Positions 10,227 through 35,373 of a DNA stretch of 64,000 nt are shown here, one piece after another. How positions within the stretch are numbered: position 1 is the stretch's first letter; each line of letters starts with the position of its first letter. The stretch lies in IMG/VR virus record IMGVR_UViG_3300044591_000896, positions 1 through 64,000 of that record; one strand, 5' to 3'. A program made the position numbers and the translations under genes. The notes beneath the pieces were generated by a model, which saw nothing but the letters and a program-made list of their open reading frames with translations, was not told where the DNA came from and searched no databases. The DNA is from a virus.

Positions 10227-10307
10227 ATACGACCTCTTCTCCGCCCTGCGGTGTAATTTTTTGTGTGAAGTCCTAGTGTATCAAACTTTTTTTTACAGGT
10301 CTAGTGT

Positions 10308-14807: not shown

Positions 14808-15376
14808 TTTAAATCCCCAAATCCTAGAGAAGCACCAAACCTTGGAGTAATAGCTTCTACCTTATGTGGTCTACCATATGGACAGTAAAGAATATCACCT
14901 GGTTCTAGTATAACATCTACATCTATCAAATCATCTGAGACATTTTCTAGATCTGGATATTCCCCCGCTTTATAAATTGTCCATCTTGACTTACCTTCAA
15001 TATTCCAGAAGATCACATTCTCAGTATCCTGATGCAGCTTCCAGTATGTTCCATCTTGTGTAGTAATATTCATGTATAGATGTGTAGATCTACCCTCAAC
15101 CTCAAGTTGATAGTTTGATTCTGTGAAAATTTCTAATAATTTTTTTTGTGCATCTGCAATTCCTGGAATACGCATTGCATTTAGGATTCTGAATCCACCA
15201 TTCTCATATCGCTTTTGTCCATACAGATTTCCTGCTTTCACATCCTCATCTAAGATTCTGAATGCGTCGTCCCATTTGATCTTTGGTAACCCCGCCACAT
15301 TTTTTGCAACATGAACAGTAGCGTTGTTGAAAGCTGATCTAAACTCAGCGTCATCAAAGATATCAAAAGTTGTCAT
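14804..15376 (-). CDS. JmjC/cupin-4 family oxygenase, paralog of 13589-14143
   Basis: HQDTENVIFW...PGDILYCP.G.PH; leaderless start after TGCTATACT. Confidence 0.8.
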   Translation of the reverse strand: MTTFDIFDDAEFRSAFNNATVHVAKNVAGLPKIKWDDAFRILDEDVKAGNLYGQKRYENGGFRILNAMRIPGIADAQKKLLEIFTESNYQLEVEGRSTHLYMNITTQDGTYWKLHQDTENVIFWNIEGKSRWTIYKAGEYPDLENVSDDLIDVDVILEPGDILYCPYGRPHKVEAITPRFGASLGFGDLK

Positions 15377-15395
15377 GCCTCTAGTATAGCATTTG

Positions 15396-15411
15396 TGTTT
15401 CACGTGAAACA
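15396..15411. promoter_or_regulatory. parS: Perfect parS palindrome (ParB-binding site)
   Basis: TGTTTCACGTGAAACA. Confidence 0.85.
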
Positions 15412-15662
15412 AGTTCTAGTCAACTACTATTTCAGATTTGAGAAAATGTTAATATTTATTTTTCTTGTATGATACACACCTAAAAAAAGAACGATAAATC
15501 TTGATAGTCCGCCCATATTGTCCTCAATGTCCGATTTATACACTAAAAAAGTCGTGTGATGTGCCTCACAATGTCCGAATTGCACCTTTTTTGAGTTGAT
15601 ATTTGTCAGACCCCCGTGTTATGATTTATATATAAAGAAAAACAAACGAAAGGAGTCAAAAA

Positions 15663-16680
15663 ATGACTCAACTTACAGAAACACTATTCTCAACAATAGT
15701 TCACGACTACCATAACGGCGGAGTAAAATCCTCATATGGATTAGATAACTACACACGCAAGGAAATCCTTGCCTACCTTATCCGCTCTAAGGGTTGCGAG
15801 TGCATAAACTGTCTGTGATAGACATCACACGCAATAGCCTTGCAAATGTCATACTTATTTGATACCTTTATCTTATTGAACTACTAAAGAAAGAAGAAAC
15901 AAATGTCATACTCATTCGATACTAATACAGCCTCTAAGTGGGATACCATTCAAGAAGATGTTGCCGATATGTACCTAGAAGATGTCGAAGAAACAGAAGA
16001 AGAAGATTTCTTCGGTTTCTCTAAGTCTATCGAAACAGACCACTTAACAGATGAACAGATTGACACACTACTAACTACTATCGATTGGAACTAATCTAAT
16101 GACTATCACTTACTCAATTTGGCAAGGCTCTCGCTTACTATCTATCGACAATGTAGCGCATGAGGTTAAGGCTATTGACCACCTAATAGATTCGCTTAAC
16201 GATAGCGACCTAGGCAAGAAAACAAAATTCACCGCTAACATTCAAAACATAAAGGTAGGGGCTAACTAATGACTATTGAACTAGATAACTATGGTTTCAT
16301 GCTAGATACAGAATGGTGCTATGTTGCACTATCATGGCAACTACTAATCACCACCGCCCTACTAGTAACCGCTTACAAGATTTACAAGAGAAAGAAGAAT
16401 AAGTAATGAGAAAATGCAAGATAGATGTATGCGATTCCACCGAATTAGTTTATAGCGGTGTAGATGCTTTCCTATTGGGTGTTCCTACAGAAACCTATTG
16501 CTATGAATGTTCTAACAATGGAGATGCACATAGAGAATTGCTAGAGGTTTCTAACTAATGAATAGACTATTAACTACTATCGTTCAACTATCTATTGCTA
16601 TCCCCGCCCTATACATGATGAGGATCGTGTATCATGATTTCAAGGCGGAGATGCGTGAGATGTGGCAAGAATCACACTAG
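15663..16680 (+). other. Run of short early ORFs (15663-15818, 15903-16094, 16099-16269, 16269-16406, 16406-16558, 16558-16680)
   Basis: TAATG-coupled ORFs with AAGGAG/AAAGAAG RBSs; functions unknown. Confidence 0.65.
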
Positions 16681-16934
16681 CCTAACGGCGTGTCGGCTTG
16701 ACATTGTCAAGCTGGCCCGCAAAGGCGCGGGGTCGGGCGTGTCGTTATGAACATGTTATAAAATCCCCTGAAATTTACGGCGTGTCGATTTGACAGACAA
16801 AACGGACATATTGGTGTGATGCTTATCACATGCGTTGAGCGTCTTACTATATGGACTTACTGGCTAGTAATGTCATAAATGTCAGTCCCATCTGGTACAA
16901 TACTCTTATAACAACAACGAAAGAAGGTCAATTC

Positions 16935-18006
16935 ATGAACCTAGATGAATTCCGTGCCCATGTAGAGGCAACCCGTCAAGCAAGCAAGGCAGAAGCCTTG
17001 TCAGTGCTATCTGCTACAATGTCCGTATCAACAACAACGAAAGAAGGTCGCTAATGTCAGCGAATGTCTATAATGTCGAAAGCCTCTTAGTAGGTAAAAT
17101 GTATTACTCTAATTCAGTAAAGGGCGAGATTATCTCAGCCGAAAAAAATGATGATGTATGGTACTCAGGTGCAGATACATACAAGGTGCAAATTCGCCCT
17201 GTAAATTCTTTTGATTTCAAGGACACATACCGCTATGTAGCGGTGAAGGTTGGTGAATAAATGATAGATGTAATTGACTCAACCGAATTTTATTCGGTAC
17301 TAGATGAATCACACTTCTGCTGTGATGAAATGCAATTCCGTTATGTATGCAAGGCGCATGATGAATACATGGGTTGCTACTTTTGCGAATTTGATTACAA
17401 CAAAGAATGTGAGTGTGAATAATGGGATACATTGAGATTTTTAGAATGGATCAAAATGGTGCAGGTTGGGTAGATTTATCTGACGCTACCCCTGATGAAC
17501 TATTTACTATTGAGGTAGGGCTACTTAATGAGGGAGCCTTATTCCATACCCCCGAATCTGACTAATTTGTCAGACCCCTCTGCTACAATACTCTAACAAC
17601 CACGAAAGGGAAAACCTATGTACCAAATCTCTGTTTCATACGATAGCAAGCCTATCCATTTCAATAAAAACTATGTAGACGCTTTAGAGGCTTTTACCGA
17701 ATTCAACAAATTTGTTGATTGGGGTTGGGCTAATGAATACTCAACTGTAAATCTACAAATGCCAACTGGCAAAATGTATACACGCACATTTTATCGTGAA
17801 GGACGAAAGGTCGTAACAAAATGATGACACGCAAAGACTATGTAGCAACCGCAGAAATTCTAAAGTATGCAAGCGATAAAGCGCACCCCGCTTTATTTTC
17901 TAAAATGGTAAATGATTTTGCGGAAATGTTTGCAAAAGATAATCCGCGTTTTGATGTTGTGAGATTTCACGAAGCAAGCAATTACAAAGTAAAGGTAGGC
18001 AAATAA
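16935..18006 (+). other. Run of short early ORFs (16935-17054, 17054-17260, 17261-17422, 17422-17565, 17618-17824, 17821-18006)
   Basis: Translationally coupled ORFs with GAAGG/GAAAGG RBSs. Confidence 0.65.
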
Positions 18007-18360
18007 ATGCAAATCGTTGAAATGTTTGTGTGTTCAGATTGTGAAGATTTCGGTGCAGTTTATATTGAAGGGAATGTGTTAAGTGTTAAAAGATGTGAAT
18101 GTATTGCAGAAGATTAAACGAATTCAAGAATTGCGAAGATCAAATGCAGCAACCGCAATTCCTTCAAAGAAAAAATATTCACGAAAGCGCAAGCATAAAA
18201 ATTCAGAGTATTGAATATTTATGCGGCCCGCAATCTTTTGTGGGGGGCAAGTGTGAATTACGACACATTTTAAAAATCGCCTGAATTTTGCGGCGTGTCG
18301 ATTATGATATGTCAGTGGCCCATGGTATTATTCTCTTAAATCTAACGAAAGGTCCAACTC

Positions 18361-18570
18361 ATGGAACTATTTACTGTTGCTTGCTTGAACTATGAAATTT
18401 GTGGCGATATGGCTACCTTTGATTCTGATTCAGAATATGAAATCTATGGCGATGATTATATCTGCGCTGAATGCTATGCGTCTGAGGAAATGGAATTCTT
18501 TGAAACTATAGGCTGGGCAGATTCAGACGCATTAGCGTCTGCAGGCCATGGAATGGATGAGGATTACTAA
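18361..18570 (+). CDS. Small acidic Cys-containing protein
   Basis: GAAAGG RBS downstream of promoter at 18310. Confidence 0.55.
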   Translation: MELFTVACLNYEICGDMATFDSDSEYEIYGDDYICAECYASEEMEFFETIGWADSDALASAGHGMDEDY

Positions 18571-18601
18571 TATGTCAGATCTAACCGCTATAATTACCCC
18601 T

Positions 18602-19321
18602 ATGAAACTTAAACGGTCCAACGATAGAAAGGTGGCTAACCTTGTCACAAAAAATGGAAAGCAAGCAGCAATTGCTAACACATTCGGATTACCTGCAGGA
18701 AAAGACTATTCATGTCCTGGCGCTACGTCTATCTGCGAAAGTGTTTGCTACGCTGGCAAATTGGAAAAGCTCTTCCCTGGTGTAAAAACTAATCTTCTCC
18801 ACAATTGGGAGCTCTTACGCAATGCAGACATGGACACAATGCTCATTCTATTAGATGAGATGATTGTTGAATTTATTGCTGATTGTGAAAAGAAAGACGC
18901 TCCTAAATTATTCCGTATCCACTGGGACGGTGATTTTTTCAATGATACATATACATATGCGTGGAAAGTAATTATTACTAATCATCCTGATATTCAATTT
19001 TGGGTTTATACTCGTGTAAAGTCTGCAGCGCTTATTCTTAAGGATGTTGCTAACCTATCTCTTTATTATTCCACCGACGATGATAATAAAGAAATTGGTC
19101 ATGAGTTAAAAGTAAATGAAGGTATTCGCCTTGCATATCTTGGGAAGACTTTTGCCGTAACTGAGGGCACCATGAAAGAATTGACTGGCAAGCCTGGCGC
19201 TAAATGTCCTGAGAATATGAAAAGCATTCCACTTATTAGCAATGCAGGCTCTGCATGCGTGTCATGCGGTCTCTGCGTATATGGTAAAGCGGATGTTAGA
19301 TTTTCTGCGAGTAAAAAATGA
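18602..19321 (+). CDS. Phage Gp88-like (radical-SAM-related) protein
   Basis: CPGATSICESVCYA, FRIHWDGDFF, FWVYTR, C-terminal CxxCxxC; leaderless start after promoter 18573. Confidence 0.75.
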   Translation: MKLKRSNDRKVANLVTKNGKQAAIANTFGLPAGKDYSCPGATSICESVCYAGKLEKLFPGVKTNLLHNWELLRNADMDTMLILLDEMIVEFIADCEKKDAPKLFRIHWDGDFFNDTYTYAWKVIITNHPDIQFWVYTRVKSAALILKDVANLSLYYSTDDDNKEIGHELKVNEGIRLAYLGKTFAVTEGTMKELTGKPGAKCPENMKSIPLISNAGSACVSCGLCVYGKADVRFSASKK

Positions 19322-19602
19322 CGGATATACTAGGGGCAATTATTGGAGTCGGGATCTTAATCGGATTACTGGTCCCGCTTCCAATAATTATTTATACAAT
19401 ATTTAAACAATAGCGGCGTGTCAGCTTGACAAGATCAAGCTGGCCCGCAATGTTGCGGGGTTATCCACAGGGTTACGGGAGTTATCCACAATCCCTTGAA
19501 ATTGTGATTAATCTCACAAAAGCTGCGACACGCCGTAAATGGATTAGGTAATGTCAGTGGCATAGTGTAAAATACTCTTATCAACCAAACGAAAGGCAAC
19601 AA

Positions 19603-19827
19603 ATGTCAAATGTAATCCGTGTTCCACACACAGTAGTATTCGAGGCTATTATTAACCTTGATACTATTCCTGCAAACCTACTACCTGCGCTAATTGCGCT
19701 TGATGAAGCAACAATGACTCAAATGTGCAAAGAAGCAACACTACACGCACTTGCTATGTCTAATGTATTACCACTTGCAAATGAAAATAATACTTGGGCT
19801 GAAGTAACTATCAAGGGAGATAACTAA
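19603..19827 (+). CDS. Hypothetical protein
   Basis: GAAAGG RBS after promoter 19552. Confidence 0.6.
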   Translation: MSNVIRVPHTVVFEAIINLDTIPANLLPALIALDEATMTQMCKEATLHALAMSNVLPLANENNTWAEVTIKGDN

Positions 19828-19829
19828 TA

Positions 19830-20096
19830 ATGGGATACACAACAGCATTAGCATTAGAAGAAGAATTGTCTTTAGAGGCAGGACTTGCTTATCACTTGCA
19901 GGGTAATCATTACCCACCCGTTCCCGTCTCAATGGTGCAACCTTGCATAGACGCTATTGATGCGTTCTATGATGAGGATTTTGATCGTGAGATTAATTTA
20001 CCTGAAGGTATCTCTTGGCGAGGTAAAACTTCAGCACCCGCATCTGCCATAATTGATGCTCACCACTTAGACCCGTGGCTACCTGAGTGTGATTAA
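19830..20096 (+). CDS. Hypothetical phage protein
   Basis: HLQGNHYPPVP motif; GGGAG RBS. Confidence 0.6.
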   Translation: MGYTTALALEEELSLEAGLAYHLQGNHYPPVPVSMVQPCIDAIDAFYDEDFDREINLPEGISWRGKTSAPASAIIDAHHLDPWLPECD

Positions 20097-20191
20097 CCTC
20101 ACACAATAATTTTCTCAAATACTGAGATAGGGCTAGACAAATGTCAGACCCCAATGTTATACTACCTACCTAACAAAGAAAAGAGGCAAAA

Positions 20192-20368
20192 ATGACAATC
20201 AACGACAAGTTGTATCAGGTTGGCGATTTATTCACCACCCTAAAGTCAAAGAAAACAGGTGTGATTAAGGAAATCCACCCACAGGCATCTGGCTCGGTGC
20301 GTGTGTTGCTAGAAATGCCAAACAAGGAAACTCGCTGGACTTCGGTATCAGCAAGCACTTTGGCATAA
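20192..20368 (+). CDS. Small SH3/KOW-like hypothetical protein
   Basis: AGAGG RBS; YQVGDL...TGVIKEI; not in ORF track. Confidence 0.55.
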   Translation: MTINDKLYQVGDLFTTLKSKKTGVIKEIHPQASGSVRVLLEMPNKETRWTSVSASTLA

Positions 20369-20509
20369 AACTAAATAATCGAAACAGGGGCAGTTTAAGA
20401 GAGTGTTCTCGCCCAATGTCGTAAGTAAGAACTCTCTCCCTTCGGGGAAATGTCAGACCCCCCTGCTATACTATCCACTAACAACAACCCACCAACGAAA
20501 GGTAACACA

Positions 20510-20926
20510 ATGTCAAGAGCAATCACAGTAAAGGTGGCAACACCTAAAGTAATCAAGGCTTTGGAAACAAAGTTAGCAACAATCAAGAAGGACTATGCAG
20601 AGCAAGGTGCAAACGAGGCTAAGTATGAAAAGGCTCGTAAGGCTTGGCAGAAAGAACTTCAGGATTATGCAATCGCAAACATCAAGAAGTCAGAGAACCT
20701 TCGCACAAACTATCGTTCTTGGAATAACACACTCAACATTGACTTTGATTTGACAGTATCCGAAAAGGATTTGCCAAAAGAGCCTGAGCGTGATTTTACA
20801 GTTATGCACCAACACTCATACAATGAAATTGTAGAGGACATTACAAATGCTCTCACAATTCTAAAGATGACAGATGAGGAAACAGTAAATGCTTCTACAA
20901 TGAAGCAAATTGCTCGTTATCTCTAA
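20510..20926 (+). CDS. Hypothetical coiled-coil protein
   Basis: GAAAGG RBS; start reassigned downstream of promoter 20451. Confidence 0.65.
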   Translation: MSRAITVKVATPKVIKALETKLATIKKDYAEQGANEAKYEKARKAWQKELQDYAIANIKKSENLRTNYRSWNNTLNIDFDLTVSEKDLPKEPERDFTVMHQHSYNEIVEDITNALTILKMTDEETVNASTMKQIARYL

Positions 20927-20963
20927 ATAATTTGGGGGGCAGAACTAAAGTCCTGAACCCAAA

Positions 20964-20990
20964 CGACCTGAGTAAGTCGCCAAACTGCTC
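20964..20990 (+). ncRNA. Mini H-type pseudoknot motif, copy 1
   Basis: CGAC-CTGAGTAA-GTCG-CC-AAAC-TGCTC. Confidence 0.5.
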
Positions 20991-21025
20991 TCCCTTATGG
21001 GACAACTACTAACAAAGGTAATACA

Positions 21026-21286
21026 ATGGCAAATCGTTTTAGAGTTGAAATCTATGACGCAAACAAAATGAATGACATCACAATCTATTCAGATCAAGGT
21101 GTTGATAAAGAATACTTAACTGAATTAGTATTCAGCAACATCAGAAACTTTAGCGGAAGAGTTAATGCTTATGTTTTTGATAATGTAAAAAAGAAAAAGA
21201 CAACTGCATTATTTTTTGATGAGAAGACAGTTGAAAAAGTTAATTCAATTACACGTGGCTTAAAGAAAATGGAGTTGGGGTTATAA
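21026..21286 (+). CDS. Hypothetical protein
   Basis: AAAGG RBS. Confidence 0.6.
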   Translation: MANRFRVEIYDANKMNDITIYSDQGVDKEYLTELVFSNIRNFSGRVNAYVFDNVKKKKTTALFFDEKTVEKVNSITRGLKKMELGL

Positions 21287-21467
21287 ACCCCAGCTTCGCC
21301 CGCAATATTGCGGGGTTATCCACAGGTTTACGACTGCTTGTGGAAAACGCCTGAATTTTTGTGAGATTACTCACATGGATCAAATCGGACAAATGACTAA
21401 CTAATCTAGACAATGTCAGTGCCACCTGTTATAATTGCTTAATCAACCAATCGAAAGGAATAAATCC

Positions 21468-22472
21468 ATGGCTCATAATCTAGAAATGGAAAATGGCGAA
21501 GTTGCATTTGCACTTCGTGGCGCACCTGCTTGGCATAATCTTGCCAATCGTATTTTCTCACAAGATGAGGAAGTAACTACACAATCTATGCTTGAAGAAG
21601 CAAAGTTATCAAATTGGAATGTTCGTCTATCTCCAATCACTGAGCACATTCCAGAATCTTGGAATGATGTATCTACTGCATCTCTTGTCATTCGTGATAA
21701 TCCATTCAATGGCGGAACTGATGTTCTTGCTACTGTTGGTAAGCGTTACAAGCCTGTGCAGAATGAAGAATTGTTTGCATTTGCTGATGCAATTCACGAT
21801 GCCAATGCTGATTGCCGTTGGGAATCTGCTGGCTCACTAAAGAAGGGCAAAGTTGTATTCGGTACTGTGGATATTCCTCGTACAATGGTTCTTGACCCAC
21901 AAGGTGCTAACGATGAAACTAAACTCTATCTAATTGTTTGGACATCACACGATGGTTCTGTTGCGGTGCAGGCTGCCGTTACTCCTGTTCGTGTTGTATG
22001 CCAAAACACTCTCAACCTTGCAATGAAAAGCGCAAAGCAATCTTTCAAGATTCGCCACACGCAATCTGTTGAAGGTCGCATTCAAGTTGCTCGTGAAACT
22101 CTTGGGCTTGCTCTTGGATACTTTGATGAATTCGAAAAAGAGGCTCAATCTCTTTACACTCAGGCAATTACTGATGCTGAATTCTCTAAGTTGATTCAGA
22201 CAATCTATCCAAAGCCTGAAAAGGATTCTAAGGGTGCGCTAAAGAAGTGGGAAAATAAGGTTGTTCTACTTGATGACCTTTATCATAACTCACCAACTAA
22301 CGCTACAATCAAGGGAACAAAGTGGGGCGCATTCAATGCACTTACTGAGCGACTTGATTACTATCGTTCAGGTCGTGGTAATTCTGAATCACTAATGGCT
22401 GGTGCATCAGGATTTGACCCTGTACTAACCGCAGAGAAAAATAAAATTCTCAAGTTAGTAAAATCATTTTAA
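21468..22472 (+). CDS. DUF932 family phage/plasmid protein
   Basis: AWH.L, PVQNEE.F.F, SHDGS, TPVRVVCQNTL, GT.WG..NA.TE..D. Confidence 0.85.
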   Translation: MAHNLEMENGEVAFALRGAPAWHNLANRIFSQDEEVTTQSMLEEAKLSNWNVRLSPITEHIPESWNDVSTASLVIRDNPFNGGTDVLATVGKRYKPVQNEELFAFADAIHDANADCRWESAGSLKKGKVVFGTVDIPRTMVLDPQGANDETKLYLIVWTSHDGSVAVQAAVTPVRVVCQNTLNLAMKSAKQSFKIRHTQSVEGRIQVARETLGLALGYFDEFEKEAQSLYTQAITDAEFSKLIQTIYPKPEKDSKGALKKWENKVVLLDDLYHNSPTNATIKGTKWGAFNALTERLDYYRSGRGNSESLMAGASGFDPVLTAEKNKILKLVKSF

Positions 22473-22480
22473 CTAAATGA

Positions 22481-22512
22481 TTAACGGGGGAGAGAAATCT
22501 CCCCCGTTTTAT
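22481..22512 (+). terminator. Intrinsic terminator
   Basis: AACGGGGGAGA-GAAA-TCTCCCCCGTTTT. Confidence 0.75.
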
Positions 22513-22514
22513 TT

Positions 22515-22588
22515 GGTTCGTTAGCTTAGTTGGATAAAGCGCTACCCTGTCACGGTAGAGATCACGGGTTCAAGTCCCGTACGAATCG
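22515..22588 (+). tRNA. tRNA-Asp(GUC)
   Basis: GGTTCGT/ACGAATC acceptor; CTACC-CT-GTC-AC-GGTAG; GGTTCAAGTCC. Confidence 0.92.
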
Positions 22589-22746
22589 CAATAAATATTT
22601 ATGCACATTCATGCATAATTATTCGCCCGCAATGTTAAGGGAAAATTTGTTGTGTTACGGATCACATAAAAAAAGCCCTGAAAACTATAGACAAATGTCA
22701 GTGGGGTCCTGTACAATACTCCTATATAACAACGAGAGAGGTAAAT

Positions 22747-23172
22747 ATGTCAAATAGAACTAAAGGATATACTGGAACAATTGTTGACGGCAAGAAGCTT
22801 GCTGAAATTGCAAACGGTATTTATAATCTACAGTATAGCTCAGACTTTTCTGAGTGCACAGTAGATAATCTATTGTTCATTGAACTAGAAGAGAAGAATG
22901 TTTTTGGTGATCCAAAATATGCTCTTGTATGCTCAGAAGGTGTTGGTTGGGAACAAGATACATATGGTTGCTTGGAAGTCCCTACTAATATTGGACAAAT
23001 GGGCCTATGGAATGGACGTGTATTTATCTCAGTAGATACTGTTAAGTCTTGCCTTACTGATAAGACTGAGGATATATCAGATTACATTAGAGTCTTTGGC
23101 TCCCGCCTTGATTCTAACTGTTCCCTATGGCAATCCAAAATGTCAGTGGCCTCTGGTACACTAGCGATATGA
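22747..23172 (+). CDS. Hypothetical protein
   Basis: GAGAGG RBS after promoter 22696. Confidence 0.6.
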   Translation: MSNRTKGYTGTIVDGKKLAEIANGIYNLQYSSDFSECTVDNLLFIELEEKNVFGDPKYALVCSEGVGWEQDTYGCLEVPTNIGQMGLWNGRVFISVDTVKSCLTDKTEDISDYIRVFGSRLDSNCSLWQSKMSVASGTLAI

Positions 23173-23831
23173 CCAACGAACTCATATCAAGTAAGTATAC
23201 ATTTGTCTGTGACCCAGATGAATGCGACTCATTAATTGAATTAACATCCTCAGACGGATTTGGATTCCCGTCTGGTGTGATGGAACTCACATGTCCATGT
23301 GGCCGTAAGACTACCTTATTGTCAGTGGAGCATGCTACAATTGCACCTTCAAACCAAACGAAAGAGGAAACCATGGAAACAACAATTGGCTCAGATGCAT
23401 TCCACTCACCTGCAGTAGAATACAATCCTGATTTACTAGTTACATATAAAGTAATCAAGGGTTACTCTGACCCTGAATTCACAACATCAAAGGTTACCAG
23501 TCTTGAGTGGGACCTACACAATGGACGACAATCACAAAAGCGTGTTGGTCTTCTTGAATCTAACATTAACACAGTTAAAGATATTATTACTGAAGTTTAT
23601 TCAGACTCAGATGACCAAGATACACTTCGTTCAATCGCTGAAGCGCTTGGCATTGAATTAACTCGAACAGTTGAATTCACTGCAACCATTGAGGTTAGTG
23701 GAACAATTGACCTTAACTTACTTGAAGACTATGACTTCGAAACAGAAATCACAGATAATCTTTATGTTGATTCACAGAGTGGCAACATTGAGATTGGCGA
23801 TACTGAAATCTGTTATGTGAGGGAAGCATAA
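23169..23831 (+). CDS. Hypothetical protein with N-terminal Zn-ribbon and probable internal start at 23373
   Basis: Leaderless start after promoter 23141; internal promoter 23320 plus AGAGGA RBS. Confidence 0.55.
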   Translation: MTNELISSKYTFVCDPDECDSLIELTSSDGFGFPSGVMELTCPCGRKTTLLSVEHATIAPSNQTKEETMETTIGSDAFHSPAVEYNPDLLVTYKVIKGYSDPEFTTSKVTSLEWDLHNGRQSQKRVGLLESNINTVKDIITEVYSDSDDQDTLRSIAEALGIELTRTVEFTATIEVSGTIDLNLLEDYDFETEITDNLYVDSQSGNIEIGDTEICYVREA

Positions 23832-24780
23832 TGTATTTTGAACTTACTGCTCCATCTCAGGTAGCCTTTGCACGGGCTACCTGGGAAGCGGAGTTGATTG
23901 GGTTGGACCCAATGACAATTGCACCATTGACTTTCAATATCGGAACTGGTAGTATTGAGAAGGTAAGTCGTATTCGTGATAAGTATAATCTAATAGAATC
24001 ATACACATCAGACTACGAGCCAACAGGATACACAGGGAGATAATATGTCAGACTACAGAGATGGCTTTGATGACGGTTACAAATTTGGTCGTGAAGAACT
24101 AATTGAAAAACTAAGAGAGATTGATATCTCAGATATCGATTCTTGGTTAGTTGATAAGTTAGCAGACATGATCGAAGGTAACGAGATATGAGTTGGATTG
24201 CATGCGATAAGTGTGGAGATTCAGCCCAAGCTAAATGGATAATTAAATTAGTTGAAGGCGAACTATACTTCTGTGGTCACCATAAAAATAAATATGAGGC
24301 GGGCCTTGCCAAGGTCTCATATGAAATGATAGAATTAGACAAGGTCGAAGAAGTACTACTACTAGAAGAGGCGGAAATATAATGGGAGATAGAGCAAACT
24401 TCGGATTTAGACAGAGCAATGGCGATGTTATTGTTTTGTACGGTCACTGGGCTGGACATGAGATGCTAGCACAATTAGCAAGCGCTGTTGATGCGGCACG
24501 TCCTCGCTGGACCGATGAGGGATATGCAACACGTATTGCTATTTCTCAACTCGTGGGCCAAGACTGGGAGTCGACAACTGGTTGGGGAATTTATATTAAT
24601 ACAATTCCTGACAATGAGCACAAGATTCCTGTAATCGATTGGCGCAGTGGGACCTTTAGTCTTCATGAGGAAGCATCCTATGATGAAAGCACAAAGGTCC
24701 ATGGCATGTCAGATGAACCAATGTTTTCACAAACACTGGATGCATTTGTAAATAAATATTCCTTGGTGCTTTCTAAGTAA
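23831..24780 (+). other. Coupled early ORFs (23831-24043, 24045-24191, 24188-24382, 24382-24780)
   Basis: Overlapping start/stop codons; 24188 ORF has CxxC...FCGHH zinc motif. Confidence 0.65.
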
Positions 24781-25078
24781 CACGGAACCATATGGTGCCT
24801 CTATCAGTCATTAAATGGCCAGGGGTTAAATAAAGCAGAGTTCTTTTACTTTCGTTGGTGATACTCTAGCAGCCTATATAATAGCTTGACAAATCATGAT
24901 CTGGCCCGCAAAAACATAAGGGTAACATATTTTGTTTACGAGGTCAATTTAAAATCGCCTGAAATTCTGTGATCTTGACCACATGCATACAAAATGTGGT
25001 GTGGAACACACCCAAATAGTATTCCATTTGTCAGTGGTCCAGTGTATAATTCTCATATATCAAACGAAAGGATATAAT

Positions 25079-25852
25079 ATGCCAAACTGGGTATATAACA
25101 CATTGACTATTCAAGGACCTAAATCTGAGGTAGATATGATTAAAGATAGATTGAATGCTCCATTTACATTAGCACAGGAGACATTTGGTATGGGTGATAT
25201 TTCTTCTATGGGTTTCCCCACCAAAATTAAATTAGTTGAATATAATAATCCTGTCTTTGCTTTCTATAATATCCACTCATATAAGGATGACGGCATTACT
25301 GATGAGGAATATGCCTGCCAGCCTACACGTTCAGGTGCAGATATCAAAGACCCTAATTGGTTTGCACAAGAAGTAGCACATGCCAAGACTCAAAAAGATT
25401 GGTACTCATGGAACAATACTAACTGGGGCACCAAATGGGATGTAGCCGTATCAGATGATGACAAATATCCAAACACAGAATTACTTGAATATAAATCAGA
25501 GGGTGATGACAACTGGGTTGTCTATAAGTATGAAACTGCTTGGTCACCTGCTGTAACCATTCTAACTAAACTAAGTAATCTTGTTCCTAACTGCCTACTT
25601 ACTTTGGAGTATGAAGAGGAGACAGGTTGGGGTGGAGAATATGAGATTGTCCGTGGTGATGTTAAAACTATTCTAGAATATGAGAATCGTTGCTATGCTT
25701 GCCAATCTTTTGATACATTATCTTATTGTGAAGATGACTGCGGTGAATTCTGCTCTGAATGTAACCAAGGTTCTTGGCAAGATGAAGAGGCTATGAAAGA
25801 ATGTCAGACCCACATGGTACTATTAGAAACTACAGAAAAGGTGAAAGCATAA
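25079..25852 (+). CDS. DUF1281/YubB ferredoxin-like domain protein
   Basis: MPNW..N.L.I.G, WY.W...NWGTKWD, ETAWSP. Confidence 0.8.
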   Translation: MPNWVYNTLTIQGPKSEVDMIKDRLNAPFTLAQETFGMGDISSMGFPTKIKLVEYNNPVFAFYNIHSYKDDGITDEEYACQPTRSGADIKDPNWFAQEVAHAKTQKDWYSWNNTNWGTKWDVAVSDDDKYPNTELLEYKSEGDDNWVVYKYETAWSPAVTILTKLSNLVPNCLLTLEYEEETGWGGEYEIVRGDVKTILEYENRCYACQSFDTLSYCEDDCGEFCSECNQGSWQDEEAMKECQTHMVLLETTEKVKA

Positions 25853-27098
25853 TGGAAGCATTTACAGATACAGTTGGAGAACATATCCTTGGAGCAATTC
25901 AAGTAGATATTGAGCAACATCTATTTGAGCAATGGAATAGCAAAAACTTAGATGAAGGTAGCGATTATGCTGAATATATGTTCATGCAATTTGCTCCTGA
26001 TAGCCTAAAGCAATCATACAATGAGTATTATGGCTATATTGAGGGAGATGAGTTTCTACTATGATGTTAGGATACACATTAAACGATTTAGATGAAATGA
26101 GGGCTGTTGTTACTAAGGCTCTATATGATTCTAAGGGACTGCCGACTGAAAAAGGATTAGAAAAAACAGCAGACTTTTTAGACGGGCTTTGGTCGGAGGG
26201 CTACTTTGACTAGATCATCACACTTCCTAGAATATATAAAGCTTCATTTAATTAGTCTTATCCAGGACTTAGATAACTTACATTCAACTGATGATAACTT
26301 TAAATTTGTTGAAGGACAAATTGAGGCAACCAGGCATTTATTGTCAGTGGCTACTGATATAATGAACTCTTCTAACGAAAGGTATAACAATGAATAATGA
26401 AGACATTGGGCTCCCGCCCCATTTACAGCGCATGGTCAACGCAGGTGTATCAGGCCTTGACATCATGCATGGAGAACTAAAAAACCTAATGCTTATTGCC
26501 GAGCAAGAACTTGCAGAGGCCCAAGCAATTGAGGATGAGTCAGAAGAAGCAATGGACTCTATGGACCGCACACGTTGTGAAGGTGCCCTTGATACATTAG
26601 TGTCTTTATATGATTTAACATATCAACTATCATTTGCGATTGGAGCACGTAATGAAGCCTGAAGATAAAGACAAACTAAATGAATGTTTAAAGATTCTAG
26701 ATAGCACTGACCTTGGTCTGTCCCTGGTTTGGCTATGGACCTGGTCCACAATCAACAACATCTTTGAGGATGAAAGTTACAAGCAGAAGGTTACTATCGA
26801 TCAAATGTGGGACAACCTCTGTGAGGCTGTGGAGGCTGGAATGGGCTTCTCACTGGAGTACGGGGCGGAACAGCACCAAGAAGATGTCCTTGAATGGATG
26901 TTAAATCGTGAATACATTGTAGACACAATGTTTGAAGAAGAGGAAGAAGACGAAGATGAAGATGACTGATGAATACATCAATGATCAATTAAATACAGCA
27001 CAAAAGCTTTTGTGGGGTGGGTCAGAAACAGAAAACATTGAGGCCCATAACATCATTGCTAGATTAATTAAAGATAGAGTTGAACAGACCAATTTAGT
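25852..27098 (+). other. Coupled acidic early ORFs (25852-26064, 26206-26397, 26390-26662, 26652-26969 and short neighbours)
   Basis: Tightly packed plus-strand ORFs; functions unknown. Confidence 0.6.
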
Positions 27099-27194
27099 AT
27101 AAGGGCAAGAAAAAAGGCTTACGGTGACTATTTACAAATCCGTGAAAAGTTGCTATAATTAATACAAATCAATTATCTCGAAAGGATAAATCAA

Positions 27195-27344
27195 ATGACA
27201 ACAAAGCGTGAATATCTAAAGCAGCAGGGCATTACAGTTGGAGCACGAGGACGTTTCTCAGGAGCAGCCAAGGTAGCTTTGCAAGAGGCAGTACAGAAGG
27301 GCATTACCTTCACTGCAGAAAAGCCTGTATCAAAGGCTAAGTAA
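27195..27344 (+). CDS. Lsr2-like DNA-binding mini-protein (49 aa)
   Basis: GAAAGGA RBS; KREYLKQQGITVGARGRFS resembles the Lsr2 C-terminal RGR AT-hook domain; not in ORF track. Confidence 0.65.
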   Translation: MTTKREYLKQQGITVGARGRFSGAAKVALQEAVQKGITFTAEKPVSKAK

Positions 27345-27436
27345 CTAACTGTGGGGCTGGCAATAGCGGTGGGATCCGTGGGCATTGCCAGCCTCGCTTC
27401 ATTTTGGTATAATGTAAGATTGACGAGAGGCGGACT

Positions 27437-27853
27437 ATGAGCAAGACACCAACAGACAAAGTAATGGAATCATTAGTTAATCTAATTGAGCAAGCATACT
27501 TCAATCCTGCACAGGTAGGTCGTTATCTATCTGAGCAACCATACTACACAACTGACCGCACAATGGAAATGATTACTGAAATCATTACACATATTGCAAG
27601 ACGGGCACAGCAAGAACAAGTTGCTGGTAAAACATCAGACGGTCTCTATCTAGCAACTGAGTTAGCCTATGCCTTAGAAGCAATTAAAGAAACATATCAA
27701 TTCAAGACTCTCAAACTACCTAGAACTCTATCTGAGATATCGGCGGGGCTACCAAAAGTAGAACTAAAAGATATAAATAGGAACTACAGATATTCCTGGT
27801 TAGATAATAACAATGAACCAGAATCAGTTAGAATTGAACACCCGTTCTTCTAG
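27437..27853 (+). CDS. Hypothetical protein
   Basis: TTGCCA-N17-TATAAT promoter and GAGAGG RBS. Confidence 0.6.
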   Translation: MSKTPTDKVMESLVNLIEQAYFNPAQVGRYLSEQPYYTTDRTMEMITEIITHIARRAQQEQVAGKTSDGLYLATELAYALEAIKETYQFKTLKLPRTLSEISAGLPKVELKDINRNYRYSWLDNNNEPESVRIEHPFF

Positions 27854-27872
27854 CCAATGTTCCACAAATTAG

Positions 27873-27902
27873 ATCCACATCCACAGGGTGTGGATTTTTT
27901 TT
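27873..27902 (+). terminator. Intrinsic terminator ending the plus-strand block
   Basis: ATCCACAT...GTGTGGAT followed by T run. Confidence 0.65.
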
Positions 27903-28341
27903 GTGATCAAAATGTGTGGGCTTGTGGGCAAAAATTCCCTTTTACGACGAGCTAAAAAATACGCCTGAAATTGTATATAAATGTCGACAAATCTATATAG
28001 AATCATATAACTATTTAAACAAATGTGTGCAGAATTAGCCAAAATCTGTCAAAATTTTTCCATGAAATCTATTGACAATGTGGGCAAAATATGCCTTTTA
28101 CGAGGGCATTGACAAAATCCCTGAAATTTGCATGCATATACAAATGTCGACAAAATGATTGACATTACGGCATCTATATGATAGGGCATGTCCCATTACA
28201 TGTATATCTAAATACATATATATCTGTAGTAATTGTCGACTTATCTATAACCATATTACTCCACAATACTCCACTTTACTCCACATATAAAGCCTCTAGG
28301 AGGCTGATAGAGAGGAGATAATTGGGAGGGGGATATAGGAG

Positions 28342-28830
28342 TTAAGGCGCATATTTGCCACGTATGTTGGCATTAAAGTATGTGCCAGATGTATTCCTAG
28401 ACCATCTGGATATGACATCGTATGTCATTTCATATGTTCTTTCAGTTGGAGCAGATGTTGATCCAGGAGGCCAATTAACATTTACTTGAAATACAGCTTC
28501 ATCTGATCCAGTATCTCCAATTGATTCATATATTAGAGTTGCATTTACTTCAGCTGGGTCTTCTTTCATATTTAGTGGATATTTAGCTTTAGATGGAGTT
28601 ATTGAAAAATTAAACTCATCTGTATCTATATCTTGTCTTACATTCTCTATCCACCATATATAAGCATCATCATCGTTTAAAGGCCATTCTAGTCCCTCTA
28701 GTAAGAATGCCATTGCTACTTCTTCTGAGACCCCGCCTTCTCTTGATATGGTCAAAGCCTCAAGATCAAGTTCATCCTTATATTCATCATATGAAGCCTT
28801 AATTAAATCAGAAACCAGGACCTTTTTCAT
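28342..28830 (-). CDS. Hypothetical protein
   Basis: 162-aa ORF coupled to upstream gene. Confidence 0.5.
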   Translation of the reverse strand: MKKVLVSDLIKASYDEYKDELDLEALTISREGGVSEEVAMAFLLEGLEWPLNDDDAYIWWIENVRQDIDTDEFNFSITPSKAKYPLNMKEDPAEVNATLIYESIGDTGSDEAVFQVNVNWPPGSTSAPTERTYEMTYDVISRWSRNTSGTYFNANIRGKYAP

Positions 28831-29054
28831 AGGTGAATCTCATTTACAGGCTCTTTAGACCAGTGTATATATGATCTAATATAGACTATTCCATAGGCTA
28901 CGGCTGCAAAGATAAATCCGTATTGCTTTGTTGTTACAGCATAAATGATCCATAGGAACTCATTAAATAATAACAGTAGCCATCCCCATATTGTCTTCCG
29001 CCCAACAAAGAATATGCCTGTTACACCAATTGCTGCTAATATATATGACCACAT
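28827..29054 (-). CDS. PnuC-like small membrane protein
   Basis: GRK.IWGW, W..Y....QYG pattern; three TM segments; leaderless. Confidence 0.55.
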   Translation of the reverse strand: MWSYILAAIGVTGIFFVGRKTIWGWLLLLFNEFLWIIYAVTTKQYGFIFAAVAYGIVYIRSYIHWSKEPVNEIHL

Positions 29055-29402
29055 TATTCTATTATAGCATTTATGTCAGGTACTGACAATACCCTCTCTA
29101 CCGCCGCCGATTTCACTAATTGGGGTCAAATTTTCATGATATTGTATATGATAGTCTCTTAATTGATAAGTTACTGCACAATAGCATATAGGACAATTTG
29201 TGATCCATTGGGACTTATCTTCCCAATGCTTAGGCAACTATGAACTCAATCCCTTAAATGAATGGCATGCACATACGCCTACCACCTTGTATGTTCTATC
29301 TACTTCAGCTAGGTCATTATATGTTGCTACAGCCTGACAGTAGTGGCATTTCTCTTTTGGTTCCGCCTCTAAATAGGCTTCAAGGTTATCCAGGATACCC
29401 AT

Positions 29403-29627
29403 TTACTTATTCCTTGGGATAAGTGTTTGAGGTCCTTCTGTACCAAATAAGGACTTCTTAATAGGTACGCAATTAGGGACTCTCTTACCGCCCTTGTCCT
29501 TCATGCCTACCTGCTTGTATCCCGCCCAGCAAGCTTTCTCCATGTTGTTCCAATTGTCTTCTTCTTCGTTGTCAGACTCATATCCTTTTGAAATCTCTTC
29601 ATCTGAAAGATCTTTTGTATTATCCAT
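29403..29627 (-). CDS. Small phage protein with CW.GY...G.K......VPNCV motif
   Basis: Motif visible; leaderless start. Confidence 0.55.
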   Translation of the reverse strand: MDNTKDLSDEEISKGYESDNEEEDNWNNMEKACWAGYKQVGMKDKGGKRVPNCVPIKKSLFGTEGPQTLIPRNK

Positions 29628-29904
29628 AGTTACATTCTACCATATCTTATATTTCATTATGACCTTGCTTGCATTTCCTTTACTACCATCTCTTCCGCCT
29701 GGCCTTGGCTATGGCAATATCCATATGTTAATATCTCTCCGTGCTTATATAGAGTCCATTTATATGGCATTGGATCAAGCCTAAATGCTGAACGCTTATC
29801 TTGAACTCCGTCATGCTCTTCAATTTCATGATATATCATATGATAAATATACTATATACGACAGGTACTGTCAATATGTCTCTACCGCCGCACTTTTTTT
29901 TGCA

Positions 29905-30510
29905 CTAATTGAGATCAATATACTCGTATAGTCTTTGTGATAGTAGTTCATAAGACCTAAAAGCTCTATCTATACCTTCATGTTTACTAACTTCATTGCG
30001 ACAATATTGATAATACTGGTTATCCTTAGATGTAGCTATAAATACTTCATCACTCTGTGGCATAGCAAAAGTTGTAAGTTCTTTATCGCTACCAAGGGTT
30101 TTAAATATATAGTTAAATGCCCACCAAGGGTTTGTTTCAAAAGTAGTAAAGTCTACAACCATTAAGTTTTTATATTCATTTAACTTATGATATGTATCTG
30201 AGTAAGAGTTGATGATTCTAGATAACTGCTGCTCTATCATCTCTTTGGCTTCAAAAGAGTCTGAGACATTTTTGTGCGATTCATTTCTCTCAAGACTAAG
30301 TACAAGTTTAGAGGCTATTGCATCTATTGGATTTCTTACAACAGTAAGGATAGGACTGTCTTCTAAAATTTCAGCATTATTATTATCAAAGCGGTGCTGG
30401 TATATTATGTCAAAATTATCTACCTCTTGAGTAAGGTTCTCTCTTAAAAAATGAGATCCATGTCTAGGATATGTTATACAAAACAATTGTTTACTGTCTA
30501 TTGTCGACAT
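29905..30510 (-). CDS. Sulfotransferase-like protein
   Basis: TYPRHGSHFL (PSB-loop-like) and VVRNPIDAIAS. Confidence 0.6.
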   Translation of the reverse strand: MSTIDSKQLFCITYPRHGSHFLRENLTQEVDNFDIIYQHRFDNNNAEILEDSPILTVVRNPIDAIASKLVLSLERNESHKNVSDSFEAKEMIEQQLSRIINSYSDTYHKLNEYKNLMVVDFTTFETNPWWAFNYIFKTLGSDKELTTFAMPQSDEVFIATSKDNQYYQYCRNEVSKHEGIDRAFRSYELLSQRLYEYIDLN

Positions 30511-30898
30511 CTTTAATCCTCCTCCATCTACCGTATTTTGTTGGTACATCTAAACCTATGTACTCTTGACCAGTTTCTAGATCAATAAGTAGCCATTTGC
30601 CTGGAGCTTTTGTATGTATAGTCAAATCAACTGCTTTTGGAAACTCTTCAACTGTTGCCCCTTGGTACATCTTAGGCAAGAAGTTATACACACCATCAAG
30701 TAGTTTTCTCAATACTATTTTTCCAATCAACATACATCTTGTAATTATCATCTGCAATTTTAAACCAAGCAAGGCATTCTTTGCACATATAAAATGATCT
30801 AAATTTAGAAGTATACAGATGTAATTGTGAAGAGTCTATATTTTTTGCACAATGTCCACAAACTGCCTGCATAATTCCTCCATTATAATACTATTATA

Positions 30899-31201
30899 CT
30901 ACTTATTCTTTTCTTCCATATCAGTTAATGCTGATATTGCAGCCATCATATTTTCTTCTGGGATATCATTAAAATAATATCTTCCAGCCTCTTTGTCATG
31001 ACTCCAGCTTCTCCAACCATCAATACCAGGAAAATAAAGTGATCCAGTTTCCATTGATTCTGGGTCATCCATTATAGATTTAATGTAATCGTACATATGT
31101 ACTTCTTGAATAATTGAATTTCTTAATGGTGTCCACCAAAATAATTTATTAACTAGCCAATCAATCATTGTCTGGATCCTTTTCCCATGTAAGCTTTCCA
31201 T
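30899..31201 (-). CDS. Hypothetical protein
   Basis: ORF track; start uncertain. Confidence 0.45.
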   Translation of the reverse strand: MESLHGKRIQTMIDWLVNKLFWWTPLRNSIIQEVHMYDYIKSIMDDPESMETGSLYFPGIDGWRSWSHDKEAGRYYFNDIPEENMMAAISALTDMEEKNK

Positions 31202-31446
31202 CTTTATATACTGGCCAGTATCCTAGTGGGCGCCAGTCCATCTTCATAATCTTAGGCTCTTTCATTAGAAAGAGTTTCTAATCTGCTCTGCAATAAGTGC
31301 TTGGCTTCGTTCAAATTTACTAATCTTTGGCTTAGCTGACAGCCTCTTTAAATTCTTTTTCTGTCTCTTCATTTTAGATTGTGAGCTTGATGCATTATTT
31401 TTTTTCATATGTTTATTATACTATAACTAATAAAGCCTGACAATGG

Positions 31447-31911
31447 CTATAGTATTTTAAACCCGCCGCATTCTTTTAGAAATAAAGAAAACTCTACTAA
31501 ATCGTCTATGCGTGGCAAATAGTTATAGGCGTATGGTCTAGCCTTACCCTTGCCTTTACACTGCCTGCAAACGCCCTTAGAAGGGTGGAAAACGCCACTT
31601 CTGGTGATCCCAAAGCCTAGGCAAGCATAGCAGTCTACATCTGGCAGTGACTCTAGAAACTTCTGGCACTCATCTACATATATTTGTATTTTACCTATTT
31701 TAAAATCACTATTTATTCTATCAGACAAAGACAAACAGTCTTTTTTATTTAATGATCCTCCATCATTTGTGTGAGGACTATCAACCTTACGGGCTATTTC
31801 TGGGTACTCGTGCTCTATATATTCCCATAATGAATGCCAGCCCCAGATATTTCTTCTAAATACCTTACCTATATCAGATGTAGGCTTAATTCCATAAACA
31901 TCCATACCCAT
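31447..31911 (-). CDS. Hypothetical protein with DnaJ-type CxxCxGxG motifs
   Basis: CYACLGFG, CRQCKGKG. Confidence 0.6.
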   Translation of the reverse strand: MGMDVYGIKPTSDIGKVFRRNIWGWHSLWEYIEHEYPEIARKVDSPHTNDGGSLNKKDCLSLSDRINSDFKIGKIQIYVDECQKFLESLPDVDCYACLGFGITRSGVFHPSKGVCRQCKGKGKARPYAYNYLPRIDDLVEFSLFLKECGGFKIL

Positions 31912-32627
31912 TATTTGTGCACCTTTAAACTAGAATAAGCTTTATTGCTTACCTTTATATCAAGAGATGATCCCATATCCCAGTAGAATGTTTCCATTGG
32001 TCTTCTTGTTATATAGTTGTCCGTCCATTTTGAGTTAGCCCCATAATGAAGCATTGGTGCTTCTATGTCATTTAGAACATAAAACCATTCTTCATCTACA
32101 AATTTATCTATTGCTACGTTCCATACTGGCCATCCTGTTTCTTGGTCAGAGGCTATGCTATATGAATCAAGAGACTTTAATTTAGAAATCATTAATTCTA
32201 TAACCTCTTTTAGTATTGGGTTTTCTGGACTGCAACCAAAAAACCACATTGCATATTCTGTTTTTCTATCTGCTATTGGATTTTTGATTGGAATAAAGAA
32301 TGCATCTTTATCTTGTGGTAAAAAAGAATCTATATTGCTAAATGATATTACATCTATATCTATGTACACTCCACCAAACTTATATATAGATAAGTATCTC
32401 CAAAAATCTGCTTTAATCTGTGGATGATCTATCTTAAGATATATGTCTGCCATGTCCTGATCATAGTTATCTAGTATCATCTTGTAGCAGTCTTCGTGGG
32501 TTAGATACCTATATTCCCAGCCCTCATTATTGTTTTTCCAACTGTCAGAACAAACCTTAACATACTCTGGTAAATCATTATAATCTGATAAGCATGTCTG
32601 CCAAATTATCTTTGGGATGTTACTCAT
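31911..32627 (-). CDS. Glycosyltransferase, GT32/DXD (mannosyltransferase OCH1-like)
   Basis: IPKIIWQT, ADFWRY..IY..GGVYIDID. Confidence 0.85.
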   Translation of the reverse strand: MSNIPKIIWQTCLSDYNDLPEYVKVCSDSWKNNNEGWEYRYLTHEDCYKMILDNYDQDMADIYLKIDHPQIKADFWRYLSIYKFGGVYIDIDVISFSNIDSFLPQDKDAFFIPIKNPIADRKTEYAMWFFGCSPENPILKEVIELMISKLKSLDSYSIASDQETGWPVWNVAIDKFVDEEWFYVLNDIEAPMLHYGANSKWTDNYITRRPMETFYWDMGSSLDIKVSNKAYSSLKVHK

Positions 32628-33994: not shown

Positions 33995-34118
33995 TATACT
34001 TCTCTCATTTTACCGCATCTAGCACAAGCTTCATATGTCTTGCCAGTAAATGGGCAAGAACCAGCTGCAACAATATCGTGCCCAAGGATTGAGCATTTGA
34101 TTTTGCTAAACATAAAAA

Positions 34119-34376
34119 CTACTTAGTTGGTAGATGTTTAATTGTTGACTCGTAGTAGTCTGGTGTTGGGTTGTCGAACCAATTCTGTAGGTCCTCAAGA
34201 GACATGTCTCTTTTTTCTGATACAGGCTCCTGACCTTCTTGTGCGAAGGTAGCAACTGTTTCAAATGTTCCATCAGAATTTGGAGAGTATTCTACTCTAC
34301 CTATTTCAATTGTGAATCCGTGGTCGTAAGCTTCTCCAGATTCATCTACACCTTTTGATCCCGCTTTTGTAATCAT
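34119..34376 (-). CDS. Hypothetical protein
   Basis: Coupled to upstream oxygenase. Confidence 0.5.
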   Translation of the reverse strand: MITKAGSKGVDESGEAYDHGFTIEIGRVEYSPNSDGTFETVATFAQEGQEPVSEKRDMSLEDLQNWFDNPTPDYYESTIKHLPTK

Positions 34377-35263: not shown

Positions 35264-35373
35264 GTTGTTCTCCTTTTAATGTTATGCAATAGATGAATCT
35301 ATTATTAAATCTACGGCATCGTCTAAAGAATTTGAGTGTTCTTTAGAGCAATTACCACATTCTTTACACATTG

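Follow-up and report, generated by a model that had tools for sequence, protein, structure and literature searches.

A polar, strictly spaced element repeated between the early transcription units of an actinophage genome and its possible role as a boundary cassette

Nine co-oriented copies in the early block

What is the role of a short, strictly spaced sequence that recurs nine times, always in the same orientation, among the small early genes of a phage? The question is raised by the IMG/VR virus record IMGVR_UViG_3300044591_000896, of whose 115,479 bp the first 64 kb (64,000 nt, the stretch presented here and referred to as the window) were the starting point of this analysis. An initial annotation, made from the letters alone, had described an element of three blocks, GGG, TTACG and CCTGAA, in nine co-oriented copies. 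A search of the window with the pattern GGG-N13-TTAYG-N17-CNTGAA returned exactly those nine matches, with starts at 16729, 18242, 19457, 21312, 22639, 24920, 27103, 27926 and 28082, all on the + strand and none on the - strand, relative to a mean chance expectation of 0.01 in dinucleotide shuffles. The complete genome contains the same nine copies only, with zero matches on the reverse strand and zero for a reversed-pattern control; the motif is clustered at 16.7-28.1 kb, inside the early block (a span of 11.4 kb), and does not occur at a genome-wide background rate. The sequence GCCCGCAA occurs six times in the genome, each time directly upstream of one of copies 1-6, as had been noted, and the description of the copies as intergenic holds as well, since every copy lies outside the open reading frame (ORF) families that are conserved among relatives. 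The element is real, strongly conserved and polar. As set out below, our favored but tentative interpretation is that a stem-loop joined to a non-consensus, promoter-like sequence, together ~62 bp, forms a cassette that marks each boundary between consecutive early units.

The gene content of this uncultured freshwater phage is that of an actinophage and includes WhiB, a GP88-family protein, a DUF932 protein, DnaE, RecA and a class II ribonucleotide reductase; by DUF932, the nearest cultured relatives are Streptomyces phages of the Stanwilliamsviridae, with 51% identity. Beyond this record, the element is conserved in more than 100 IMG/VR contigs, where it is likewise co-oriented with the genes and restricted to the early block. 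Five complete related genomes of 112-117 kb each carry two to seven copies of the element (at up to three mismatches) on one strand within a stretch of 10-12 kb, and gave no control hits. Supporting this polarity was a motif-independent sample of 80 metagenome contigs that were fetched via the DUF932 protein, in which 246 copies were found on the gene strand and none on the opposite strand, with the element present in 71 of the 80 contigs. The phage family is abundant: close relatives of just one of its early proteins are encoded on more than 546 JGI/ENA metagenome contigs (at least 91% identity among the 80 kept). Its probable hosts are freshwater Actinobacteria with small genomes, which are difficult to culture.

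The copies are positional orthologues, with spacers that are kept within an orthologous group and are wholly different between paralogous copies. The early block itself is largely syntenic in ~50 relatives. In one relative (G155) a single additional cassette is present between two copies of the same type, the early block being otherwise syntenic: in L191, positions 3603-4400, an additional 65-aa ORF with its own promoters lies between copies of the same paralogue (those with the GTCGGGCGTGTCG spacer). This ORF may be the trace of a cassette that was acquired at the element.

Anatomy of the element

The three blocks proposed in the initial annotation are real, but the first of them is not free-standing. 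It belongs to a GC stem-loop (CCCGCA-loop-TGCGGG), in which GCCCGCA forms the 5' arm and the GGG block the 3' arm, and in minimum-energy folds at least two of the three G residues of the block were paired as 3' partners in 194 of 221 instances. Compensatory stem variants were observed, including CCCCC with GGGGG and CCCCCAT with GTGGGGG. Of 154 unique segments, 115 had the more stable stem as + strand RNA and 31 as - strand RNA (Wilcoxon p = 2e-11), and G-U pairs made up 113 of 890 pairs in the + strand fold versus 59 of 762 in the - strand fold. This strand bias in stability was not predicted by base composition.

The third block was correctly placed as CCTGAA, but it is longer than that and reads CCC-YK-GRAAWTT(T), at element positions 37-48. 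Its existence does not depend on the pattern used to find it: the IMG/VR query was GCCCGCAA-N6-8-GGG-N13-TTACG, with block 3 excluded, and among the more than 119 loci obtained, block 3 was present at a fixed offset in 140 unique instances. In the converse search, with blocks 2 and 3 alone, GGG was found exactly 16 nt 5' of TTACG in 195 of 221 unique instances. The spacer lengths, which had been described as never changing, are invariant in all nine copies here, but the offset from TTACG to block 3 varies by 1 bp among relatives: it is 19 nt in all nine copies, and 18 nt (n=47) or 19 nt (n=70) in relatives. This tolerance of +/-1 bp is restricted to the spacer between blocks 2 and 3, and in a few copies in relatives the GGG was displaced by 1 nt. 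The region 3' of block 3 is consistently A/T-rich.

An RNA element extending across the spacers was considered and rejected, as no helix of at least four pairs was detected in a fixed register between -30 and +70 in 127 unique instances, and the rate of GGG/CCC pairing was the same as predicted from composition. A search of positions 15000-29000 against Rfam at E <= 1 identified a tRNA-Asp only, plus a DapZ match that was under its gathering score.

One base of block 3 varies in an unusual manner. Position 43, which is G or A, is nearly uniform within each genome, and it is A in all nine copies here. Homogeneity at this position was found in 19 of 53 loci, compared with an average of 7.3 after shuffling, and a value of 19 was not attained in any of 5000 shuffles; the count is descriptive because the related genomes are not independent. 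The concerted variation points to a lineage-specific reader of the element. Restriction avoidance was rejected as the cause of the G/A change, as CCWGG occurs at its expected frequency. Among 33 early protein families that were screened, only the 138-aa protein encoded at 27437-27853 has alleles that distinguish genomes of the G type from those of the A type (with 22 discriminating columns), an association that may reflect a clade effect, as the G-type set is one tight clade. Taken with the conserved blocks, the differing paralogous spacers and the lack of a fixed-register RNA helix, the concerted base supports part of the earlier view, namely a polar recognition site with fixed geometry.

Position relative to the early transcription units

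The genes of this phage are on the - strand throughout, except for a block of small + strand ORFs at ~15.4-28.3 kb, which carries ~18 promoters of the type TGTCAG-N10-TAnnnT (window positions 15604-26363). These promoters have the form TGTCAG(TGG or ACCCC)-N-TG-n-TAnnnT, often behind TAGACA, and resemble the actinobacterial PafBC/RDRM type; CRP boxes precede their inferred starts by 53-86 nt. In this genome and in three complete relatives, the element is found in every large gap between consecutive early units and never ahead of the first unit (15663-16680 here) at the divergence point, and one or two copies, sometimes abutting, precede a conserved non-coding stretch of ~300 nt at the end of the block. 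Internal promoters in short gaps are without an element.

The sequences on either side of the element are also characteristic. What lies immediately 5' of the stem-loop is a canonical terminator (in 46 of 185 instances), some other hairpin or the 3' end of a tRNA. On the 3' side a CRP box directly follows block 3 in 86 of 221 instances, and then come GGCGTGTCG and CGGACA boxes and the TGTCAG promoter. The distance from the element to that promoter is 0-108 nt here and 30-200 nt in relatives (measured from TTACG), with no helical phasing between TTACG and the next promoter. Boxes for host regulators within the spacers, which had been reported for DnaA and CRP, were confirmed, with DnaA boxes occupying the spacers of copies 3 and 4 and, in copies 2 and 5, CRP-like half-sites on either side of TTACG.

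A proposed composite cassette at unit boundaries

We tentatively interpret the element as a cassette of two parts. The first, the GC stem-loop, would close the upstream unit in the + strand transcript, acting as an attenuator or as a stabilizer of the 3' end. The second part, at a fixed 13 bp from the stem, consists of TTACG followed 17 (+/-1) bp on by CC-YK-GRAAWTT, a spacing like that of -35 and -10 hexamers on the gene strand, and it may provide RNA polymerase with a docking site specific to this phage family, in effect a non-consensus promoter heading the next unit. Such a promoter would work in tandem with the TGTCAG-N10-TAnnnT promoters further downstream, and the copy-specific DnaA, CRP-like and GACAC-type boxes in the spacers would occlude or modulate it. 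Its specificity would come from a factor, probably phage-encoded, that sequence searches do not reveal. On this reading RNA polymerase would be the reader, and transcription would start a few bases 3' of block 3.

A docking-site cassette fits the data because of the + strand preference of the stem-loop, the rule by which the element marks one boundary fewer than there are units, the restriction of the +/-1 bp tolerance to the spacer between blocks 2 and 3, the regulator boxes in the spacers and the A/T-rich region after block 3. The order of stem-loop, 13 bp, 5-bp block, 17-18 bp and A/T-rich block is also that of the T4-type promoter early stem-loop (PeSL), and the regulator boxes lie within and across the blocks, as they do at regulated promoters.

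A number of results weigh against this interpretation. By position weights, the blocks TTACG and CC-YK-GRAAWTT fit no known promoter class; a scan for consensus promoters did not call them, save for an overlapping promoter at copy 7, and the -10-like block is without the A(-11)/T(-7) signature of TAnnnT. No U-tract follows the stem-loop, as element positions 5-16 are not T-rich across paralogous copies, and therefore it is not a canonical terminator. Since ordinary promoters already follow every copy within 0-108 nt, an additional promoter is not obviously needed. The searches for a specificity factor point the same way. There was no match to the sigma domains PF04542 (Sigma70_r2) or PF08281 (r4_2) at E <= 1 in a six-frame translation of the phage genome, no homologue of phiC31 gp12 was identified by phmmer (best E value 0.28), and the DxDGD polymerase motif was not found in the phage. 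The motif TTACG-N17-CCTGRAA had 40 matches, versus ~42 for the control, in 151 genomes of the candidate host order, this putative host order being that of a small Actinomycetota metagenome-assembled genome (MAG) that holds a short element-bearing contig, and it was likewise at background in 101 genomes of that order. It is the lack of a match to a promoter class, the lack of a specificity factor in the searches and the ordinary promoters downstream of each copy that keep our confidence in the cassette low, although we rank it first.

Other potential readers were also evaluated. An N4-like virion polymerase was rejected, as the 3787-aa protein is of the tape-measure type (PhageMin_Tail). A regulon of the host was rejected on the basis of the control-level occurrence of the motif in the 151 genomes. 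A looser pattern gave ~2x control in the candidate host order, with recurrent hits that represented conserved, apparently coding sequence. Scanning of 185,579 species genomes returned isolated single hits here and there, along with two very small MAG contigs, which are probably phage.

No known family of promoters, operators or RNAs matches the element, whose spacers are linked to DnaA and CRP-like sites. As a conserved polar signal at the boundaries of early units, it offers a handle on how these phages organize the take-over of their host. If it is a true promoter read with a novel specificity factor, it would represent a new way of redirecting actinobacterial RNA polymerase. In a more specific form, which we consider unlikely, it would be a new promoter class or RNA polymerase docking site confined to this abundant freshwater actinophage family, for which a small phage protein unlike sigma factors (acting as an appropriator or sigma adaptor, as MotA/AsiA or PafBC do) would re-specify the host polymerase. 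With each copy gated by host DnaA and CRP, early-gene dosage would then follow the replication and energy state of the streamlined host.

Alternative interpretations

The alternative that survives best is an array of operators, in which the blocks would be contacted by a sequence-specific DNA-binding protein encoded by the phage that switches the early block on or off or insulates its units. We regard this as possible, if doubtful; its nearest precedent is provided by the stoperators of Cluster A mycobacteriophages. In keeping with it, the element is specific to the phage family and missing from candidate host genomes, it is asymmetric and co-oriented with transcription, and one of its positions varies in concert per genome, as stoperators co-vary with their repressors (PMC6550527). 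An operator requires no sigma factor, and at copy 7, where the element overlaps a consensus-like promoter, binding would repress. However, the unit promoters follow the copies at a distance that is variable and not helically phased, so simple occlusion or a roadblock could not silence the units. In addition, Pfam and PHROGs searches of ~45 early ORFs identified no DNA-binding domain except a 49-aa Lsr2-like domain, and the sole protein that tracks the G/A type, that of 27437-27853, may do so by the clade effect described above. An operator role would imply an unrecognized DNA-binding protein among the tiny early ORFs.

The initial annotation had favored reading the element on the - strand, as a promoter for an alternative or extracytoplasmic function (ECF) sigma factor. 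The sequence TTCMRG-N17-CGTAA would then fire into the 3' end of the preceding unit, and the resulting antisense RNAs would shut off early genes. ECF promoters have a -35 element with an AAC core, a 16-17 bp spacer and a CGT-type -10 element, and the 17-bp spacing and the CGTAA of the element resemble these. There is also a copy at the tail of every unit but the last, non-coding one, and copy 4 has a terminator-like hairpin with a T-run on the - strand ~50 nt downstream. However, the same searches that revealed no Sigma70_r2 or r4_2 domain leave the phage without a detectable ECF sigma factor, the motif is not enriched in genomes of the candidate host order, the proposed -35 (TTCAGG or TTCCAG) is without an AAC core, and the stretch to be melted is GC-rich in the copy-1 group. 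The antisense RNA would begin with the stem-loop, of which the + strand RNA gives the more stable form (115 versus 31 segments), and upstream - strand terminators were present in only 26 of 185 instances. We therefore consider this proposal unsupported and improbable. All readings beyond those discussed here, taken jointly, have a slim chance of being correct.

It is very improbable that the element is only a recombination linker, a patch of homology or a recombinase target for the swapping of early-gene cassettes. The additional small ORF between two copies of one paralogue type in G155, the tandem abutting copies at the end of the block and the recombination role that has been proposed for PeSLs (PMC2839356) would agree with such a function, but the early block is largely syntenic, and paralogous copies share only blocks of 3-12 bp, which are too short for homologous recombination. 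Moreover, strict spacing with free spacer sequence indicates recognition rather than homology.

Equally poor is the case for a polar signal at the DNA level (ejection, packaging, nicking or fork arrest) or for an RNA processing signal in the + strand transcript, for although the polarity, the restriction to a single block that may match the long terminal repeat of related Streptomyces phages, and a + strand stem-loop that could shield a processed 3' end are compatible with them, the element is strictly tied to transcription-unit boundaries and host regulator boxes, it has no Rfam match and no conserved RNA helix across its spacers, and the canonical terminators ahead of some copies mean that little RNA may cross those copies; for the ejection, packaging or nicking signal of the initial annotation, nothing in favor was found.

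Comparison with known phage elements

The closest structural parallel is the T4-type PeSL, whose stem-loop ends transcription arriving from upstream and whose promoter, with -35 and -10 hexamers separated by N17, starts the next unit (PMC2839356, PMC4122927). As with PeSLs, the copies here are small repeated intergenic cassettes in an early or plastic part of the genome, co-oriented with the genes that they flank; a G/C stem-loop is directly followed by two hexamer-like blocks with 17 bp between them (here TTACG-N17(+/-1)-block 3), and we propose that the stem-loop closes the upstream unit. In contrast to PeSLs, whose hexamers are near the sigma-70 consensus (TTGACA-N17-TATAAT or close variants), the blocks here fit no class, ordinary promoters are located further downstream, host regulator boxes are present in the spacers, and the genes lying between copies are for the most part syntenic, not shuffled.

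The actinophage phiC31 also has a repeated, phage-specific, non-consensus motif (CCGGGTTGCCGACTCCCTTAC, ~9 copies) that occurs between its early genes, co-oriented with them and frequently preceded by a hairpin. The early intergenic regions of phiC31 (21570-36290) contain ~9 copies of CCGGGTTGCCGAC(T)CCCTTAC and several of the palindrome CTACTCACGTGAGTAG, and GGG-N12-TTAC is a substring common to the two phages. These 20-mers are reportedly early promoters, according to Ingham, Wilson and Smith, so that phiC31 provides an example of an actinophage with a promoter class of its own. The phiC31 motif differs in that it is a contiguous 20-mer ending ~12 nt before the ribosome-binding site, and while phiC31 gp12 carries a Sigma70_r2 domain, the phage analyzed here is without a detectable gp12 homologue or sigma domain.

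Stoperators of Cluster A mycobacteriophages are asymmetric, transcription-oriented, mostly intergenic sites in multiple copies, the motif of which differs between related phages together with the cognate protein (PMC6550527). The element shares with them its asymmetry, its many copies, its orientation with transcription and its intergenic location. Stoperators, however, are single 13-bp sites with 20-30 copies genome-wide in temperate phages, where they are bound by the immunity repressor and block elongation, whereas the element is a 48-62-bp composite with nine copies in an 11.4-kb early block only, upstream of the unit promoters, and no repressor was identified.

A similar layout occurs in the Streptomyces phage Angela, one of the Stanwilliamsviridae, in which nearly every gap between small early genes in the terminal repeat consists of a GC hairpin, a conserved motif, CGGACAT boxes and a promoter. 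In Angela the conserved motif is a GTCCGG...CCGGAC palindrome and the hairpins have a TTCG loop, and in the 16 kb examined there was no GCCCGCAA, no GGG-N13-TTACG and no TTACG followed by block 3. The two layouts suggest an old architectural theme with lineage-specific motifs. The DUF932 gene of Angela sits in the long terminal repeat (two places per record), and the + strand early block of the present genome may be a collapsed terminal repeat.

The individual copies

All nine copies are on the + strand. Copy 1 (16715..16776) has the stem-loop GCCCGCAA ... GCGGGG, TTATG at 16745, the block 3 sequence CCCCTGAAATT and a GGCGTGTCG box in spacer 1. Copy 2 (18226..18289) has a stem-loop, TTACG at 18258 and block 3, with a CRP-like TGTGA-N6-ACACA centered on TTACG. 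In copy 3 (19443..19504) the stem-loop is CCCGCA-ATGT-TGCGGG, TTACG is at 19473 and block 3 has the variant CTTGAA; both spacers are taken up by direct DnaA boxes (19461 and 19482), and a perfect CRP box follows at 19503-19518. Copy 4 (21298..21359), the orthologous region of which was aligned across 64 unique relatives, has the stem-loop CCCGCA-ATAT-TGCGGG, TTACG at 21328 and block 3, together with a DnaA box at 21316, an inverted DnaA box ending at 21347 and a CRP box at 21360-21375. Copy 5 (22625..22686) comes after a terminator (22483-22508) and the tRNA-Asp (22515-22589); its TTACG at 22655 is overlain by a CRP-like TGTGT-N6-TCACA, and a TGTCAG promoter begins 14 nt 3' of its block 3. Copy 6 (24904..24967) has a weaker stem (CCC/GGG plus CAA/TTG), TTACG at 24936 and block 3.

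The last three copies are at the end of the block. Copy 7 (27103..27150) is without GCCCGCAA, lies immediately 3' of the stop codon of the ORF at 26932-27102 and has the CGTGAA variant of block 3; it is overlapped by a consensus-like TTTACA-N17-TATAAT promoter (27131-27159). The last coding unit (27195-27853) is driven by that promoter and by TTGCCA-N17-TATAAT (27385), both consensus-like and not of the TGTCAG type, and it encodes the 49-aa Lsr2-like DNA-binding domain and the 138-aa protein, the alleles of which are very divergent among relatives. Copy 8 (27926..27973) is 3' of the strong terminator (27871-27897) that closes this unit, and is followed by TGTCGA-N10-TAGAAT at 27982. Copy 9 (28082..28129), the last, heads the conserved non-coding stretch that extends to the convergent terminator at 28291-28305. 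Promoter-like sites of the TGTCGA and TTGACA types are present in that stretch (28130-28305), as are three repeats of ACTCCAC spaced by 10 nt (28258, 28268 and 28278), and the hairpin at its end (28291-28305) can also be read as the terminator of the convergent - strand genes. The stretch, which is conserved in three relatives (G153, G155 and G157), may be a small RNA.

Other features of the genome

At the point where the early block diverges from the - strand genes there is a perfect 16-bp palindrome, TGTTTCACGTGAAACA (15396-15411), which is parS-like and is the sole copy in the genome. The first 30 bases of the record are repeated with a 57-bp period at both genome ends (1-120 and 114905-115479), and thus the call of a 'direct terminal repeat' may rest on a tandem repeat inside a gene. 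In the 115 kb genome CCGG does not occur (77-150 expected) and CGCG occurs twice (49-150 expected); ACGT is depleted relative to both expectations, while TCGA is low relative to base composition only and equals the Markov expectation (89 versus 89.6). The depletion of CCGG and CGCG looks like restriction-site avoidance and may be a hint at host defence systems. Finally, CGGACA(T) boxes, often behind A-rich sequence, are present in the early intergenic regions both of this phage family (for example, at 16803) and of Angela (1-10553), which suggests a putative regulator site that is common to distant relatives.

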